A stretch of 64,000 nucleotides of DNA from Gemmatimonadota bacterium (GCA_039592335.1 JBDHBX010000003.1:131056-195055), one strand, 5' to 3'; positions 36,669-43,446 are shown, counted from the stretch's first letter. The notes: generated by a model from the letters alone, not told the origin. A program made the numbers and translations.

Positions 36669-38006
36669 TCACTCCTCCCGGGCCTTCGCCCGTGCCACCG
36701 CTTCCGCTTCCAGGGTCGACCTCACCGTGATGGTCTCCAGCCCGTGGGCCTTGGGACCGGTCTCCTGCTTGCGCAGCATCACCGCAAAGAGGAACCCGAG
36801 AACGCCCAACACCGAGAAGATCCACATGCCGGCGGCGTAGCCGCCCGGGTTGGCGGCGCTCGCCTCGAAGGCGTCGTTCGTCCTGCCGATGAGCCAGTTC
36901 ATCCCCGCAACACCGATCTGCTGCACCAGCGTCATCACGGCGTACCCGGTCCCGAGCCGGTTCTCGGGCACGATGTACGCGACGGCCGGCCACATCACCG
37001 CGGGAATGAGGGAGAATGCGAGGCCCATCATCACGACCGGCACGCCCAGCGGCACGAGCTGGTACGCCATCATCAAGTACACCGGCATGAGCAGGAACGA
37101 GCCCGCGGCCATGAACAGCGCACGCTTGCCGAACCGGTCCACCAGGAGGCCGAACAGCGGCGTCGCGATCATGGCGGAGAGCGGCAGGATGCTGTTCAAG
37201 CCACCGGCGCCCTCACGCGTGAGACCGTGGCCCTCGATGAAGAACTTGATGGCGAAGCTGCGGAACGGGAAGATCGCCGAGTAGAAGGTCACACAGAGCA
37301 GCACCACCAACCAGAACGACCGGTCGAAGCGGAACATGTCCTTCACGACGAGCCGGTCGATCTCGCCCCGCTCGCCCAGCGCGTAGCGCCGCCGGGCCCC
37401 CGTTTCCATCACGCCGTAGCCGATGGCCGGGACCACGCACAGCAGGCTCAGCACCGCAGCCACGATCAGCGGCCCCTGCCAGCCCGTGTAGGCGAAACCC
37501 GCCCAGCTGGGGGAGTTGTCGGCCGCGACCTGCCCCAGCCGCGCGAAGGTGAGGTTCAGCCCGAAGGCGAAACTCAGCTCCTTCCCCTTGAACCATTTGG
37601 CGAGCGCGGTCGTGATCGCCACGATGAGCGGCTCGGAGCCGATGCCGAGCAGGAAGCGGGCCGACAGCATGACCGACAGCTCGCCCGAGACGGCATTGAG
37701 AATCGCCGCGACGGTGCACAGGGCGCCGAAGAAGATGATGGAGATAACCGTACCGAACCGGTCGATCACGACACCGCCGATGAGCAGCACGATCACCGCG
37801 GCGATGCTGTACACCGAGTAGAGCTGGCCGATGTTCTCGTCGCTGAACCCCAGGTCGGCCTTGAGAATGTCGGCGATGGGCGCAACGGAATCGTAGACGT
37901 AGTAATTCCCGAACATCGCAAGGCTGACGACGACCAGCACCGCCCAGCGATAGAGCGTCGGCGGCGGTGGGCGCACCACGTCTGCGGCGGCTCGAGGTTC
38001 GGTCAT
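36669..38006 (-). CDS. MFS transporter
   Basis: 445 aa with about 12 predicted TM segments and MFS-type loop motifs (GGVVIDRFG, LVDRFGKR). Confidence 0.8.
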   Translation of the reverse strand: MTEPRAAADVVRPPPPTLYRWAVLVVVSLAMFGNYYVYDSVAPIADILKADLGFSDENIGQLYSVYSIAAVIVLLIGGVVIDRFGTVISIIFFGALCTVAAILNAVSGELSVMLSARFLLGIGSEPLIVAITTALAKWFKGKELSFAFGLNLTFARLGQVAADNSPSWAGFAYTGWQGPLIVAAVLSLLCVVPAIGYGVMETGARRRYALGERGEIDRLVVKDMFRFDRSFWLVVLLCVTFYSAIFPFRSFAIKFFIEGHGLTREGAGGLNSILPLSAMIATPLFGLLVDRFGKRALFMAAGSFLLMPVYLMMAYQLVPLGVPVVMMGLAFSLIPAVMWPAVAYIVPENRLGTGYAVMTLVQQIGVAGMNWLIGRTNDAFEASAANPGGYAAGMWIFSVLGVLGFLFAVMLRKQETGPKAHGLETITVRSTLEAEAVARAKAREE

Positions 38007-38122
38007 GCGCGCGATCCTTTGGGCGTCGACACCGGTTTCTGACAGACGAGAAGTGTTGGGAGGTGATGCGGGCCCAAGTATGGGCCGGCGGCCGCGCGAG
38101 CGCCAGCCGCGGGCCAGCTCCC

Positions 38123-39613
38123 TCAGACCGTGACGGGGAGACCCTGCTCTCGCGCGTACCGCATCAGTTGGCGCACCCCGCCCTTGAACGAATAGGCCTC
38201 GTAGCCCTCCCGCTGCATGACTTCGGCGACGTAGGCGGTCTGCACGCCAAAGCTGCAGTAGAGTACGTAGGTCCTGGTCTTGTCCAGGCTCTTGAAGTGC
38301 GCCGCCAGATCGGTGATGTCGCGCTGTTCGGCGCCGGGATAGTGCCAGTGCTGGAAGTGGTGGGGCTCGCGACAGTCAAAGACCACGGCACCGTCGAGGA
38401 TCTCCGCGGCGAAGAGGTAGGGCTGGACCAGATCCACATCCTGAAGCGCCCGTAGATCCAGCGTCTTCCGCTCAGCGACCGCATGCTGCAGCAAGGAGAG
38501 GTCGACGTGTGATTCCTCGTCGCGCGCCGCGGCCGGCTTCGCATGCGTCACCGGCCGGTCGGGCAGAATGGCGCAGTACTCCCGCACGTGCGCGCTCAGC
38601 ACGGCCGTGCCGATCCGCTCGGCCAGCGCGATGATCTCGAGCTTGTCGAGCCCGAGCAACGGCCGGAACACGGGCAGCGAGGCCACCTCATCGATGGCGC
38701 GCAGGTTTCCCAGGGTCTGCGAGGAGACCTGCCCCACCGCCTCCCCGGTGATCACGGCCTCGCCTCGGATGTCCTGCGCGACCGCCTCACCGGCGCGATA
38801 CATGAGCCGTTTGAGCACGACCTGCCAGTACTTCGGCTGGACCTCCTCTTTGAGGTCGTCCACCACGGGCACGAATTCCACCACGTGGATGCGCGGCTGA
38901 TCCCCGAAGCTCCACTCGTCGGCCAGGATCTTGGCCACCGACACCACGGCGCGCTCGTACGCCTCCCCACCGAGGTTGCAGAACACGTAGTCGAGGGAGA
39001 TGCCGCGTTTGAGCATGAGCCACGCAGCCACCGCCGAGTCGAACCCGCCGGAAATGAGGCACACGGCCTTCCCCTCGACGCCGAGCGGAAGCCCCCCGGC
39101 CCCTGGCTCCCGGCCACTGTAGAGGAAGGCCTCCTCGTCGCGCACTTCCACCGCAACGGTAACGTCGGGATGATCGAGGTCGACCGACGCGGCATGGCGG
39201 TCCAGCGCGGCGCCGAGCCGCACCTTGATGTCTTGCGCGGTGAACGGATGCGTACCGACGCGGCGCGCGCGCACCGCGAATTTCCGGTCCCGCACCCGAT
39301 CGGCGAACAGCGACTCGCCGGCGCGCACGATCTCGTCGAGGTCGGCGGCCAGCCGCGCCTCGACCTCGGACACGCTGCTCACCCCGAACACCGCCGCTAG
39401 GCGCTTGAGCGCGGAGCGATCGGACGCCTCCACCAGAATGCGGCTCCAGCGCGCGTCGATTCGGGAATCGATGTTGGCGGCGGCGAGCGCATCGCGCATG
39501 TTGTGCACGAGCCGCTGCTGAAAGCGTCGGCGGGTCCTGCGCGCCTTGGTGGCGACTTCGGGCGCCACGCGAACCAGGAAGAGCGTGTAGTCAGGCGTCG
39601 CCTTCGACGTCAT
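38123..39613 (-). CDS. thiI: tRNA 4-thiouridine(8) synthase ThiI with C-terminal rhodanese domain
   Basis: THUMP-like N-terminal region, PP-loop CLISGGFDSAVAAW, and rhodanese with catalytic Cys (LYCSFGVQT). Confidence 0.9.
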   Translation of the reverse strand: MTSKATPDYTLFLVRVAPEVATKARRTRRRFQQRLVHNMRDALAAANIDSRIDARWSRILVEASDRSALKRLAAVFGVSSVSEVEARLAADLDEIVRAGESLFADRVRDRKFAVRARRVGTHPFTAQDIKVRLGAALDRHAASVDLDHPDVTVAVEVRDEEAFLYSGREPGAGGLPLGVEGKAVCLISGGFDSAVAAWLMLKRGISLDYVFCNLGGEAYERAVVSVAKILADEWSFGDQPRIHVVEFVPVVDDLKEEVQPKYWQVVLKRLMYRAGEAVAQDIRGEAVITGEAVGQVSSQTLGNLRAIDEVASLPVFRPLLGLDKLEIIALAERIGTAVLSAHVREYCAILPDRPVTHAKPAAARDEESHVDLSLLQHAVAERKTLDLRALQDVDLVQPYLFAAEILDGAVVFDCREPHHFQHWHYPGAEQRDITDLAAHFKSLDKTRTYVLYCSFGVQTAYVAEVMQREGYEAYSFKGGVRQLMRYAREQGLPVTV

Positions 39614-39664
39614 GTACCGAAGGTACGCTGCGTCTGGGGGGATTCCAAGCGAGGTGCGAAGGGC

Positions 39665-40132
39665 TTACGGGCCCGCGAAGATCGCGCTGATCCGCCGCGC
39701 TCGATAGTCGAAGATCGCGTCGAGCTGCCGCCGCACCATGATGGCGTGTGCCGCCAGCCCCATCGGCCCGAGCGGCAGCGCGTACTCGACGCGGTCCGAC
39801 ACCTGGACGCCTTCGACCACGGGGCGGAAGGTGTGCAGGTGATACCACGACTTGTACGGCCCCACCACCATTTCGTCGGCGAAGCACACGTTCGAAACGA
39901 AGCGGTCGATGCGCGACTCCCACCGCATCGGGAGACCGAGCCAGCGGATGCGGTAGCGAATGCGTGTGCCCTCGCGAACGGCCGCATCGGACGCCCACTG
40001 CACCTGGAAGTTGAGCCACGAGGGGGTGATCTCGGCGAGGTTACGCGGGTTCTGGAAGAACGCGAAGACATCGTCGAGGTCGGCCGGCACGATCTGGGTG
40101 CGCGACAGCACGAACCGCTTGCCGTTCTTCAT
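39665..40132 (-). CDS. SRPBCC (START/Bet v1-like) family protein
   Basis: 155 aa. VFAFFQNPRNLAEITP...W.H.H.F pattern. ATG 40132 overlaps the photolyase stop (ATGA). The listed 351-aa version is a spurious extension. Confidence 0.7.
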   Translation of the reverse strand: MKNGKRFVLSRTQIVPADLDDVFAFFQNPRNLAEITPSWLNFQVQWASDAAVREGTRIRYRIRWLGLPMRWESRIDRFVSNVCFADEMVVGPYKSWYHLHTFRPVVEGVQVSDRVEYALPLGPMGLAAHAIMVRRQLDAIFDYRARRISAIFAGP

Positions 40133-41607
40133 GGCGCCAGCGCCTCTGCGCCGTAGCGCTCGAGATACGGCCGCACACGCAGCTTGCGCGCCGTGTTCTG
40201 CGAGCTCATGTAGCGCACATTGCCGAACACCGGCCGCTCCGGCCCCCAGGCGCGATCGTAGCGGCCCAGCACCCAGAAGATCCCCGAGTACGAGTTCGGA
40301 TCGCGACCGTCCAGCGCATACTTGTTGTTGAGCTCGACCATGAAGTGCAGCGCCTCCTCGGGCGAGGCCGACCACTCCAGGATCTTCTTGCCCCACAGCA
40401 TGCGCAGGTAGTTGTGCACCTGCCCCTCGCGCAGCAGCTGGCGCTGCGCCGCGTTCCACAACTCGTCGTGCGTGGCCGCCGTTTCGAACGCGGCGAGGTC
40501 GTAGCGGTATTCCCGCGGATCGCTGGCGTGGTCCGCCAGCGTCCGCCGAGCCCACTCCGGCAAGGAGTCGTAGCGGTCGTAGTCGGAGCGAAACGCGCAC
40601 ATGTTGTATCCCAGCTCGCGCCACGTGACCAGCTGATCCACGAAGGCGGTGGCGCTCTCTCGCATGCCCCACCCGGCACGGCCGCCCCTCGCCTCCGGCC
40701 TCAGCTCGTCGGGTGTCCACCCCTCGGTGTCCGCCACCCGCGCGAACAGCTCGTGGACGCCCAGGTGACCGAAGTGGAGGTACGGCGAGAGACCGCTGGT
40801 GCCCGGCTCACCGAGCTCGTTACGGCACTCCGCATAGTGCGGGAGCCGCTCGACGAGAAACCGGTCGACGGCCTCGAACGCGGCGCGGGGACCGCCCCGC
40901 AGCGCGGCCGGCGGCACGGCGTGATCGACCGGCAGCGCCGTCAGGGCCGCGGGCTCAACCGCCAGCAGCGCGGGAGGGGCCGCTGGCCAGCAATCGGTCA
41001 CGGCCCGATCGACACCGCCGAAGCGCGGTGCGTCGAGCGCCGCCACCGGATCCTCGAGCGGCCAATCCACGAGATGCTCTGAAAGCTCGCGGTGCAGAAA
41101 GCGGCGGAACTGATGCGCGGTCCCGAAGGCCCGGGGCGCTGCCCCGAGGGGGAGGAGCCCGTTGGCGTCCACGGCCTCGAGTTGGACAGGCACCCGCAAG
41201 GCAGCGGTGTCGAGCATGCGCGGGAGGAAGAACGCCGGGTTATCGTCGGTCACGATCACGGCGGCCGACCGCGCCAGGGTCTCCAACAGGCCCTTCCCCG
41301 CTCCCGGCTCCGGCTCGACGTAGGGAAGATAGCCGACCGGCCGCCCCGCGAGGGAAGCGGCGTGGTCCGCCATGCCCTGCAGTGCGAACGCGTGGAAGCG
41401 CTCGCTGGCCCAGGGGTAGTCCGCACGGAGCGCTTCCAGCACGAGCAGCGGCTGGCGAAGCTCGTTGGCCCACTCCACCGCCCGCTCGAGAGCGTAGTTC
41501 GCGGTGAGCCGCCGGTGTGCGGTCATCCAGTACAGCACAAACCGGCCTGCGCGGCGCGGCGATGCGTCGTTGGCAGCTCGGATGCGGATACCGGGAACGG
41601 GGCTCAT
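40129..41607 (-). CDS. phr: Class II CPD deoxyribodipyrimidine photolyase
   Basis: N-terminal FVLYWMTAHRRLTANYAL and C-terminal FAD-binding block WNAAQRQL..EG.VHNYLRMLWGKKILEW, typical of class II enzymes. The alternative start is GTG 41643. Confidence 0.9.
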   Translation of the reverse strand: MSPVPGIRIRAANDASPRRAGRFVLYWMTAHRRLTANYALERAVEWANELRQPLLVLEALRADYPWASERFHAFALQGMADHAASLAGRPVGYLPYVEPEPGAGKGLLETLARSAAVIVTDDNPAFFLPRMLDTAALRVPVQLEAVDANGLLPLGAAPRAFGTAHQFRRFLHRELSEHLVDWPLEDPVAALDAPRFGGVDRAVTDCWPAAPPALLAVEPAALTALPVDHAVPPAALRGGPRAAFEAVDRFLVERLPHYAECRNELGEPGTSGLSPYLHFGHLGVHELFARVADTEGWTPDELRPEARGGRAGWGMRESATAFVDQLVTWRELGYNMCAFRSDYDRYDSLPEWARRTLADHASDPREYRYDLAAFETAATHDELWNAAQRQLLREGQVHNYLRMLWGKKILEWSASPEEALHFMVELNNKYALDGRDPNSYSGIFWVLGRYDRAWGPERPVFGNVRYMSSQNTARKLRVRPYLERYGAEALAP

Positions 41608-41663
41608 GGACCTTTCGGGGGCGCCGCCGGAGGGCGACGCCACGAGACGAGTGCAGGTGAAAC

Positions 41664-41693
41664 GAGGGGCCGGCGGATCAGCGCCGACCCCTC
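41664..41693 (-). terminator. Hairpin after the fasciclin gene (weak or leaky terminator candidate)
   Basis: GAGGGGCCGGCG-gatca-GCGCCGACCCCTC (one mismatch). On the minus strand it is followed by GUUUCACC. The U-tract is short, so read-through into phr is plausible. Confidence 0.4.
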
Positions 41694-41706
41694 CTCAACC
41701 ATCAGG

Positions 41707-42216
41707 CTACCACTCGGGCAAGATCACCGTGTCGATCACGTGAATCACGCCGTTCGAGGCCTCCACGTCGGCCTTTACCACCTTGGCATCGTTCACGTAG
41801 ACCGAGCCGTACTTTACCTTGATCTTCACGTCGTGGCCATTCACCGTCGTCGCGCGGTCGAGCTCCACCGCCTGATCGGAGGTGACGCGGCCGGCCACCA
41901 CGTGGTACGTCAAGATTGCGGTCAACTTCTCCTTGTCCTCGAGCAACGCCTCGACGGTGCCCGCGGGCAGCTTAGCGAAGGCCTCGTCCGTCGGCGCAAA
42001 TACCGTGAACGGGCCCTCGCCCTTGAGCGTCTCGACCAGGCCCGCGGCCTGAAGCGCTGCCGCCAGCGTGTTGAACGAGCCGGTGGCGACCGCCACGTCT
42101 ACGATGTCGTCCGATGTGTAGCCGGCCGAGCTGCTCGAGTGCTTCATCTGGGCCTGGGCCGAGCCGGCGACCAAGAGGCCGGCGGCGACCAGGGTAGTGA
42201 GGGTGCGGAACTGCAT
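41707..42216 (-). CDS. Secreted fasciclin (FAS1) domain protein
   Basis: Signal peptide [25 protein letters not shown]1 motifs [10 protein letters not shown] and [16 protein letters not shown] lies 8 nt upstream of ATG 42216. Confidence 0.85.
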
Positions 42217-42276
42217 GATGGGTGCCTCCAAGAAGTGATGGGTAATGCGACTTGATCTATACGGAAGCCCGGCCAC

Positions 42277-42372
42277 CTAGCCGCGCGCTGGGGCGGAGAG
42301 CCGGCGGCGCTGGATCGCCCGCCACTGCAGGGCCTTGTACAGCACTGCGGCGACGATGTCCAGCTTGTTCAT
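42277..42372 (-). CDS. 31-aa mini-ORF (MNKLDIVAAVLYKALQWRAIQRRRLSAPARG), first cistron of the light-locus operon
   Basis: Strong SD GAGGAGG 5 nt upstream of ATG 42372. It lies downstream of the predicted minus-strand promoter. The 61-aa listed version would start inside the promoter/operator. Confidence 0.4.
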   Translation of the reverse strand: MNKLDIVAAVLYKALQWRAIQRRRLSAPARG

Positions 42373-42415
42373 TCTGACCTCCTCGAAACGCTTGACTGTC
42401 CAACCGACGTCCAAG

Positions 42416-42444
42416 AATGTATGTGATAGTCTAGGGTTTGTCAA
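42416..42444 (-). promoter_or_regulatory. Sigma-70-type promoter for the mini-ORF/fasciclin/photolyase transcription unit
   Basis: The minus strand reads TTGACA (42444-42439), a 17-nt spacer, then TACATT (42421-42416). Confidence 0.6.
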
Positions 42445-42482
42445 GTGAATGTCTAACGTCATATGTTGACAAGACTTAGACA
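42428..42482. promoter_or_regulatory. Candidate CarH/LitR operator: five TWGACW hexamers at 11-bp phasing, diverging from a centre near 42460
   Basis: Minus strand: TAGACT (42433-42428), TTGACA (42444-42439), TAGACA (42455-42450). Plus strand: TTGACA (42466-42471), TAGACA (42477-42482). Two of the five are the -35 hexamers of the divergent promoters. Confidence 0.55.
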
Positions 42483-42494
42483 GAATGATACTTT
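42466..42494 (+). promoter_or_regulatory. Sigma-70-type promoter of the CarH/LitR-like gene, predicting a leaderless mRNA
   Basis: TTGACA (42466-42471), a 17-nt spacer, then TACTTT (42489-42494). ATG 42502 is 7 nt after the -10 element and has no SD. Confidence 0.55.
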
Positions 42495-42501
42495 ATCGGC
42501 C

Positions 42502-43446
42502 ATGAGCGCACCGACTGGAAACCGCGAGCCACGCCATCCGATCCGGGTGGTCTCCCTGCGAACCGGCCTGTCCCCGGATGTCCTGCGGGTCTGGGAGCGG
42601 CGCTACGGCGTGGTCACCCCGCAGCGCAGCGAGGGCGGACAGCGACTGTATTCGGACGCCGACATCGAGCGCCTCGGCTTGCTGAATCGCGCCACCCAGG
42701 CCGGCCGAGCCATTCGGCAGGTGGCCGAGCTCCGCAACGAGGAGCTGGTCGCGCTGCTGGAGGAGGACGCCGCCGCCCGTGCCTCGGGCGCTTCGACGGC
42801 CCCCGGGACCCTCGGCGCAGCGCAGGACTACCTGGCCGGCGCGCTCACCGCGGTGGAGGCCCTGGACTCTGGACGGCTGCAGTTCGTGCTGAGGCAGGCC
42901 GTGTTCGGCCTGGGAGCCACGGACTTCGTGGATCACGTGCTCGCCCCCCTGCTCCGTCAGATCGGGGACCGTTGGCACCACGGCACGCTCACCCCAGCGC
43001 ATGAGCACGCCGCGTCCGTCATCGTCAGGCGCACGCTCCAATGGATGGAGGAGATCCTGGAGGTCCCCGGCTCGGCGCCGTTGATACTGGTGACGACGCC
43101 CGCCGGTGAGCGGCACGAGATGGGTGCCATTCTGGTGGGGGTGGTGGCTGGCACCGAGGGATGGCGCACGGTCCAGCTGGGACCCGACCTGCCTGCGGCC
43201 GACATCGCGGAGGCCGCGAGACAGGCCGGCGCCCACGCGGTGGCCGTGAGCAGCATCCGGGCAGACGATGCCGCGCGACTCCTGGCGGAACTCGAAGGAC
43301 TACGAGCGGCGCTGCCCGACGGGGTGGAGCTGCTGGTCGGGGGAGCGGCGACCGCGCCGCTGAGCCGCCGGATCGAGGCGATGGGAGCGCGGTACCTGGC
43401 CGGCTTCGACGAGCTCAGGCAGTACCTGCAGGACCTGCAGCGCTAG
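42502..43446 (+). CDS. CarH/LitR-family MerR-type regulator with C-terminal cobalamin-binding photoreceptor module
   Basis: MerR HTH (IRVVSLRTGLSPDVLRVWERRYG). Wx9EH motif (WHHGTLTPAHEH). B12-binding ExHxxG (GERHEMG) with downstream SS and VGG. The alternative start is ATG 42463. Confidence 0.85.
   Translation: MSAPTGNREPRHPIRVVSLRTGLSPDVLRVWERRYGVVTPQRSEGGQRLYSDADIERLGLLNRATQAGRAIRQVAELRNEELVALLEEDAAARASGASTAPGTLGAAQDYLAGALTAVEALDSGRLQFVLRQAVFGLGATDFVDHVLAPLLRQIGDRWHHGTLTPAHEHAASVIVRRTLQWMEEILEVPGSAPLILVTTPAGERHEMGAILVGVVAGTEGWRTVQLGPDLPAADIAEAARQAGAHAVAVSSIRADDAARLLAELEGLRAALPDGVELLVGGAATAPLSRRIEAMGARYLAGFDELRQYLQDLQR

Follow-up and report, generated by a model that had tools for sequence, protein, structure and literature searches.

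What would an exact ladder of short repeats be doing in a gap of only 129 bp between two oppositely oriented genes? The question is raised by a locus in a 64,000-nucleotide stretch of DNA (the window, by which we mean this whole stretch, positions being counted from its first letter) from a Gemmatimonadota bacterium known only from metagenome-assembled genomes (MAGs). The gap is AT-rich, with a GC content of 0.40 against ~0.70 in its flanks, and out of it on the plus strand reads the gene for a relative of CarH, which serves as the model for B12-based photoreceptors and is in wide use as an optogenetic part. To our knowledge, CarH operators have been characterised in three lineages only, always as one-directional arrays at carotenoid or carH promoters. 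An earlier note, made from the sequence alone, took the ladder for a CarH/LitR operator that would repress two back-to-back promoters at once. Inspection of the sequence from 42300 to 42620 and comparison with related loci point the same way and enlarge the element: 42396-42494 is likely to be a composite operator of the adjacent CarH-type, adenosylcobalamin (AdoCbl)-dependent light-sensing repressor, which would use it to silence both promoters. The conserved unit consists of three pairs of 11-bp direct repeats with the core T-D-G-A-C-A, at nearly fixed spacing. The repeats, the promoters on which they lie and the regulator gene (carH) are:

42396..42417, minus strand: second operator pair (O2), ttctTggACGt + cggtTggACAg, beginning 2 nt past the divergent -10 and spanning the predicted start at ~42409
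42416..42421, minus strand: -10 of the divergent promoter, TACATT, from the promoter scan, with a 17-nt spacer from its TTGACA
42427..42437, minus strand: pseudo-repeat aCccTagACTa (TAGACT 42433..42428; plus-strand AGTCTA) in the divergent promoter spacer, with ACT for ACA
42438..42448, minus strand: repeat tCacTtgACAa, holding the divergent promoter -35 (TTGACA 42444..42439; plus-strand TGTCAA; 10/12 to consensus in the promoter scan)
42449..42459, minus strand: repeat aCgtTagACAt (TAGACA 42455..42450; plus-strand TGTCTA), one repeat upstream of the divergent -35
42462..42472, plus strand: repeat tAtgTtgACAa, holding the carH promoter -35 (TTGACA 42466-42471) and fitting nAnnTnnACAn (PMC8156234)
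42473..42483, plus strand: repeat gActTagACAg (TAGACA 42477-82), within the carH promoter spacer
42486..42494, plus strand: -10 region of the carH promoter, TG 42486-87 (extended -10), one base, then TACTTT 42489-94, with a 17-nt spacer from the -35
42502..42504, plus strand: ATG of carH, predicted to coincide with the start of transcription to within 1 nt
42502..43446, plus strand: carH-like gene (class I LitR/CarH, 314 amino acids), encoding MerR-type DNA-binding, four-helix-bundle and Rossmann B12-binding domains

The 5' T of each of five T(A/T)GAC(A/T) hexamers falls at 42433, 42444, 42455, 42466 and 42477, making an exact 11-bp ladder whose polarity reverses at 42460.5, a point about which four of the hexamers share a dyad. 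All five had been placed exactly in the earlier note (at 42428, 42439 and 42450 on the minus strand, 42466 and 42477 on the plus strand), together with the two promoters of which two of them are the -35 boxes, TTGACA-N17-TACATT (minus) and TTGACA-N17-TACTTT (plus). Absent from it was O2, whose phased minus-strand hexamers are TGGACG (42413..42408) and TGGACA (42402..42397). A repeat finder also returns a 16-nt inverted repeat, 42429-44 against 42466-81, that is 81% complementary.

The published CarH repeat is an 11-bp direct repeat, nAnnTnnACAn (PMC8156234), which was later relaxed to nnnnTnnACAn and occurs in tandem, overlapping the -35 or the -10 (PMC9304148). The stricter form is the one that the earlier note gave for Thermus CarH, in agreement with the literature; both plus-strand 11-mers fit it, A at position 2 included, as had been proposed. 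Exact fits to the relaxed form number five (42462-72 and 42473-83 on the plus strand; 42459-49, 42448-38 and 42406-396 on the minus strand), and 42437-27 (ACT) and 42417-07 (ACG) are pseudo-repeats by the same measure. Such arrays are confined to the gap: in 64 kb the pattern TWGACW-N5-TWGACW matches three times where 0.01 is expected, and TDGACA-N5-TDGACA with one mismatch allowed matches four times where 0.35 is expected, every match lying in the gap, which is also the only place in the window where four or more of these hexamers are gathered within 90 bp. Phased-pair and cluster scans returned no further operators elsewhere in the window, and neither this region nor the window as a whole gave an Rfam match at gathering thresholds that would indicate a structured RNA or riboswitch.

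The protein next to this array is, judged by its domains and motifs, a CarH-type (class I LitR) photoreceptor, although we do not claim strict orthology with Thermus CarH. Pfam recognises MerR_1 (E 3e-14, residues 14-79), B12-binding_2 (E 1.5e-8) and B12-binding in the 314 residues; the DNA-binding domain aligns to those of Thermus CarH and Myxococcus xanthus CarA (2jml), and the best match in the PDB is Thermus CarH (5c8d, E 5e-35), over the full length. The recognition helix, TGLSPDVLRVWERRYG, is nearly identical to that of Thermus CarH, TGLSAEVLRQWERRYG. The Wx9EH motif reads W-HHGTLTPAH-EH, and its W171, E181 and H182 (alignment numbering) are invariant in 23 aligned sequences. In the Rossmann domain the B12 motif reads ERHEMG-x41-SSI-x27-GG, the reference being E/DxHxxG-x41-SxT/V-x22-27-GG; an Ile stands for T/V, a position at which relatives have V or I, and the B12-ligand His, the Ser and the GG are invariant in the same alignment. 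The signature of a light-responsive cobalamin domain, GxxW, EH, GxxH and GxxxP (PMC11796333), is complete, as GDRW, EH, GERH and GPDLP. Relatives of the protein number in the thousands, the closest being from Gemmatimonadota MAGs. The CarH/LitR reading in the earlier note is supported on the side of the protein by the domains, the Wx9EH motif, the B12-ligand His and the choice of Thermus CarH as best solved relative.

If the array is an operator of this protein, it should accompany the gene elsewhere. We retrieved 80 genomic loci encoding relatives, of which 66 were scored for the distance from TTGACA to ATG; 27 of the window type were aligned, and 30 with a divergent fasciclin gene were anchored. 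The regulators of the compared loci share only ~45-80% identity, and between the hexamers the bases have been randomised. At +11..+16 (42477-82) the hexamer in the spacer keeps its T in 27/27, G in 22/27, A in 26/27, C in 27/27 and A in 21/27, and a repeat at +11 from the carH -35 is present in 24 of the 30 loci with a divergent gene. On the other side, the minus-strand hexamer at -16..-11 (42450-55) is kept as TGTC.A in ~22/27. A hexamer in minus orientation, which in the window is the divergent -35, faces the carH -35 in every one of the 30 fasciclin loci, at a distance of 27 nt in 25 of them and 26 nt in the other 5. The O2 hexamers match the core at 0.71 and 0.67, the background being 0.24. 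In 22/30 fasciclin loci the pair keeps seven or all eight of its core letters, with the offset unchanged or moved by 1 nt, and in 15 of these it is perfect and not moved. The hexamer at 42428 is weakly conserved (core match 0.42 vs a background of ~0.24, low information content). Of the five-hexamer array as first proposed, four members are conserved and 42428 only weakly, and the O2 pair has to be added. Both -10 elements persist in the orthologues, the divergent one as plus-strand A at 42416 in 26/27 and T at 42420 in 25/27, and that of carH as the TAnnnT core (A 25/27, last T 25/27); the extended -10 TG at 42486-87 is particular to the window and not conserved.

Association of motif and gene holds in both directions. 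Within the 615 kb of loci, the density of tandem pairs over the 220 bp that precede carH is ~340 times that in the remaining ~600 kb. Conversely, a metagenome collection scanned with TGTCAA-N5-TGTCYA-N10-TTGACA-N5-TRGACA yielded 65 loci, 61 of them with enough sequence to be read, and 52 of these 61 have a carH homologue at the predicted start, accompanied in 38 of the 52 by a divergent fasciclin gene.

The layout varies with the neighbour. Minus-orientation hexamers are absent where no divergent fasciclin gene is detected, except in three window-type loci (L044, L046 and L061). Four Longimicrobiaceae loci (L014, L025, L059 and L062) have no divergent gene and carry TGGACA-N5-TTGACA-N5-TGGACG upstream of carH, sharing the three-tandem-repeat layout and the register of the Thermus thermophilus operator. 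A Gemmatimonas-type subgroup, at ~45-47% identity (L015, L021, L022, L023, L030, L035, L040, L048, L050, L054, L057, L063, L064, L069 and L080), has yet another arrangement, TTGACA-N11-YGTCCA, in which the second hexamer is inverted and abuts the -10; it is found in 14 of the 27 loci without a divergent fasciclin gene, and keeps the 35-36-nt spacing between TTGACA and ATG discussed below.

Other candidates in the gap were discarded. Where a third repeat of the plus strand would fall on the -10 (42484-94), only the -10 TAnnnT is conserved, the T at +22 being present in 1/27 loci; a continuous six-repeat minus-strand array with CATACA (42423-18) as its fourth member can be traced in 10-11-bp steps in the window, but the ACA is not conserved; and the scan's additional promoters at 42438-42467 (plus) and 42455-42428 (minus) arise because the hexamers look like -35 and -10 boxes. 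There is also a plus-strand TTGACT at 42392-97, overlapping the last O2 hexamer by one base and forming with it the near-palindrome TTGACTGTCCAA (42392-42403); it is not conserved in either of two related loci, L001 and L002, and is probably fortuitous.

The same comparisons bear on where carH begins. Between its -10 and the ATG at 42502 there are 7 nt (42495-42501), with no purine-rich Shine-Dalgarno sequence (SD), and from this a leaderless transcript had been predicted. The distance from TTGACA to ATG is 35-36 nt in 46/66 genomic loci and 34-38 nt in 57/66, and that to an in-frame ATG is 34-38 nt in 50/53 metagenomic loci. Since the distance is fixed, the start is an ATG, an SD is lacking and all 22 aligned relatives begin at the Met of 42502, the carH mRNA is very likely leaderless, starting at its AUG, with transcription predicted to begin at ~42501-42502. 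An upstream start at ATG 42463, named beforehand as the case that would overturn this, is not conserved as a start: 22/22 relatives start at 42502, the two closest loci have ATA in place of this triplet, and 3/27 have G at 42465. The 13 extra codons that it implies are the operator itself.

The switch we propose is modelled on characterised CarH proteins (PMC8156234), and from the sequence we infer its binding, repression, dependence on light and B12, start sites and stoichiometry alike. Of its three pairs, P3 (42462-42483, plus strand) takes in the -35 of the carH promoter and its spacer. P2 (42438-42459, minus strand) takes in the divergent -35 and the repeat upstream of it, with the weak third repeat at 42427-42437, and O2 (42396-42417, minus strand) lies just past the -10 of the divergent promoter, where transcription is predicted to start. 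In the dark, AdoCbl-dependent CarH would occlude both promoters and add a block over the divergent start, repressing carH itself and a divergent operon comprising a DUF378 remnant and fasciclin, photolyase and SRPBCC genes. In the light, AdoCbl would be photolysed, the oligomer would dissociate and both promoters would fire. Occlusion is preferred to activation of the MerR type because both spacers are of 17 nt.

Several observations weigh against this proposal. Each orientation holds just two strong repeats, compared with the single-orientation arrays of 3-5 in characterised operators: the minus set reads DR-DR-dr (direct repeat, direct repeat, pseudo-repeat), its third unit being weakly conserved, and the plus set has two repeats and no conserved third (T at +22 in 1/27 loci). 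The carH -10, TACTTT, agrees with TATAAT at 3/6 positions only, and the consensus scan does not list the promoter; the term near-consensus, first applied to both promoters, suits the divergent one (10/12) but not the -10 of the carH one. Finally, although the CarH equivalog NF052513 is by far the best NCBIfam family and aligns at full length, its score of 146 bits is below the cutoff of 400. The equivalog model is narrow, and this score limits the description of the protein as an orthologue of Thermus CarH, not as a CarH-type photoreceptor. CarH has been reported to bind operators in which one or two DRs are accompanied by drs (PMC9304148).

How CarH would be arranged on the DNA can be read in more than one way. 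The fixed distance between the -35 boxes and the presence of three pairs are compatible with two abutting oligomers or, more speculatively, with P2 and P3 forming one unit, in which a single CarH tetramer (two head-to-tail dimers) would engage two repeats in each orientation and close both -35s, with O2 left to a second unit or to a cooperative extension of the first. We regard this last arrangement as rather unlikely. It would account for a -35-to-35 distance that is near-invariant (27 nt in 25/30 loci, 26 nt in 5/30) despite regulators only ~45-80% identical, while the distance to the first divergent gene, by contrast, varies from 89 to >180 nt; it suits repeats that are robustly paired rather than in triplets, the dyad at 42460.5 among four hexamers, and the need of Cystobacter CarH dimers for two tandem repeats each (PMC9304148). 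On the other hand, the engaged domains in the Thermus complex all have the same direction, alternating between dimers (PMC9304148), cooperative contacts between two abutting oligomers could equally fix the spacing, and the literature searched holds no description of such a DNA-binding mode for CarH.

Binding of the repeats by some other transcription factor, for instance a MerR/LitR paralogue encoded elsewhere in the genome, is distinctly improbable. Gemmatimonadota genomes do hold several related regulators with differing upstream layouts, and cross-talk among them is conceivable; but the motif tracks carH both from gene to motif and from motif to gene, it agrees both in sequence and in register with the Thermus site, of which a crystal structure with CarH on the DNA is available (PDB 5c8e), and the recognition helix is nearly the Thermus one. 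Less probable again is the absence of any operator, the ladder being then made up of two -35 boxes and of hexamers that resemble them by chance in a gap rich in AT. TWGACW does resemble a -35 box, and the scan does draw spurious promoters from the repeats. Chance hexamers are strongly disfavoured, however: those in the spacer and beyond the start have no sigma-70 role, yet dozens of loci preserve them at constant offsets; the enrichment of tandem pairs and the shuffle controls speak against chance; and the motif successfully predicts carH. We give equally little credit to CarH as an activator that remodels the promoters, suggested by the MerR family of its DNA-binding domain, since MerR-type activation needs 19-20-bp spacers with the site centred inside them, whereas these are of 17 bp with perfect TTGACA and repeats over the -35, and the characterised CarH/LitR proteins are all dark repressors (PMC8156234, PMC9758184).

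Dark repression by CarH as proposed would extend on the minus strand to the following genes, to ThiI only if it is co-transcribed:

42277..42384, minus strand: first cistron, with SD GAGGAGG (42384..42378) and a 31-amino-acid open reading frame (42372..42277)
42216..41707, minus strand: secreted fasciclin-domain protein with a signal peptide (Pfam)
41643..40129, minus strand: class II photolyase (Pfam; NCBIfam phr2)
about 40120..39665, minus strand: SRPBCC/polyketide-cyclase-like protein (Pfam)
39613..38123, minus strand: ThiI, 51 nt past the SRPBCC gene

The first cistron appears to be decayed. Its 31-residue product, in which MNKLDIVAAVL is joined to YKALQWRAIQRRRLSAPARG, retains the N- and C-terminal ends of a 73-75-residue DUF378 membrane protein; intact versions in L001, L002, L026 and L047 match PF04070 (E 4e-21), and the window version has no match to that family. 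It is likely to have arisen by an in-frame internal deletion of ~43 codons and to be a non-functional remnant that has kept its strong SD. The remainder of the divergent operon was taken as 39665..42216 on the minus strand, and its gene order is syntenic in five related loci (L001-L005), the placement of ThiI included. No terminator-like or promoter-like site was found within 37900-42400, and ThiI may be co-transcribed with the operon. This enzyme makes tRNA 4-thiouridine (s4U), a base sensitive to near-UV. LitR-controlled light operons often carry RudS, a remover of s4U (PMC11417400), to which ThiI as an s4U synthase would here act in opposition.

The most consistent neighbour of the window CarH clade, and its predicted target, is a secreted fasciclin (FAS1)-domain gene. 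Of the 80 loci, ~40 have it divergent from carH, and these include not only Gemmatimonadota but also some proteobacterial MAGs (L009, L011, L038, L055 and L072). Moreover, the few tandem pairs that do not belong to the upstream region of a carH gene stand before other fasciclin genes (L033 at 6606, L045 at 6449, L058 at 6592 and L066 at 5085). These are separate genes with multiple FAS1 domains, each with SRPBCC genes behind it, and their promoters have the design of the window divergent promoter: repeat, -35 repeat, N17, -10, N2, repeat, N5, repeat. Light-induced fasciclin genes of unknown function have been described in Mycobacterium kansasii (PMC9861118). A bolder synthesis, which we put forward as a doubtful possibility, is that the three rigidly spaced pairs form one ~100-bp nucleoprotein switch with a CarH oligomer on both orientations (2+2, dyad 42460.5), a geometry unlike those of the Thermus, Bacillus and myxobacterial systems, and that this CarH clade had as its ancestral core target a secreted FAS1 protein and not carotenoid synthesis.

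The mechanism of CarH is known and nothing here overturns it; the protein is an ordinary new member of its family from an unstudied phylum. Literature searches on CarH in Gemmatimonadota gave nothing relevant, and no description of the bidirectional paired-repeat layout or of a fasciclin-centred target set was found in the literature searched. What the window and about a hundred relatives present is a compact bidirectional design, in which one short region would shut down two back-to-back consensus promoters and lie over a start site as well, and whose strong geometric conservation constrains how the CarH oligomer sits on DNA. They extend CarH-type regulation to Gemmatimonadota, link it consistently to fasciclin-domain, SRPBCC and photolyase genes, and offer a clear example, for comparison between genomes, of a regulator mRNA whose leaderless form is conserved. 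If the operator is as proposed, the element, of 68-100 bp, would be a ready-made light-switchable bidirectional promoter; if the FAS1 gene is indeed the target, FAS1 proteins would have an unrecognised role in the bacterial light response.

Among known systems the closest is that of Thermus. Its CarH (LitR, TT_P0056; PDB 5c8d/5c8e/5c8f) has the same architecture and signature motifs as the window protein. We took the Thermus carH-crtB intergenic region from the pTT27 sequence and read the operator from it directly, details of contacts being otherwise from reviews: it consists of gAgaTgtACAa-aAgcTtgACAa-aAccTatACAt, followed by TACCCT, 6 nt and ATG, the central repeat being the -35 and the distance from TTGACA to ATG 35 nt. 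The plus half of the window operator, for which comparison with CarH operators had been suggested, is in the same register, with the -35 repeat, a repeat at +11, the -10 at +23 and the ATG at +36, so that TTGACA and ATG are 35-36 nt apart in the two species. Repeats in both are of 11 bp with a TnnACA core, one of them being the TTGACA -35, and in both carH is divergent from a light-protection operon that includes a photolyase. Read in this way, carH of Thermus thermophilus HB27 pTT27 (TTGACA-N17-TACCCT, 6 nt, ATG, no SD; L081 1445-1482) also looks leaderless by its sequence, of which we found no statement in the literature searched.

The differences from Thermus are equally clear. Its operator has three one-orientation tandem repeats (TGTACA, TTGACA, TATACA) and none on the other strand, whereas the window lacks the upstream same-strand repeat and has instead an inverted pair at the divergent promoter and an extra pair over the start of that promoter; the repeat core is T(A/G/T)GACA in the window and TnTACA in Thermus. 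Thermus crtB-phr is controlled indirectly, through LdrP, encoded downstream of carH, whereas in the window no ldrP follows carH. In the Thermus complex the engaged DNA-binding domains all point one way, alternating between two dimers; Cystobacter CarH acts as dimers on two tandem repeats each (PMC9304148).

Characterised CarH operators are single one-orientation arrays of 3-5 repeats, with three tandem copies in Thermus, four in Bacillus megaterium and mixtures of full repeats and pseudo-repeats in myxobacteria (PMC9304148). The Bacillus megaterium and myxobacterial CarH/CarA operators resemble that of the window in the plasticity of their design, in their mixtures of DR and dr and in having sites over the -35 or -10, and their footprints are large, ~44-55 bp (PMC9304148, PMC8156234); they are, however, unidirectional single arrays of 4-5 repeats at carotenoid promoters, and that of the window is bidirectional. 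Neither a back-to-back inverted layout closing two divergent -35s nor a separate start-site pair was found for CarH in the literature searched.

Class II LitR proteins, represented by Pseudomonas PplR1/PmlR2, are dark repressors of photolyase-containing light regulons, as we propose for the window protein (PMC9758184). They have the four-helix bundle only and sense light through a partner LOV protein, whereas the window protein has both B12 domains, and their sites are TGTACA-N12-TGTACA, whereas the window repeats are spaced by N5 (PMC9758184); a class II LitR operator was rejected on this N5 spacing and on the Rossmann B12-binding domain of the protein. PmlR2 is reported to act through two sites, of which Site 1 lies over the -35 and Site 2 falls after the start of transcription but before the start codon (PMC9758184). 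This two-site design resembles P2 + O2 at the divergent promoter of the window.

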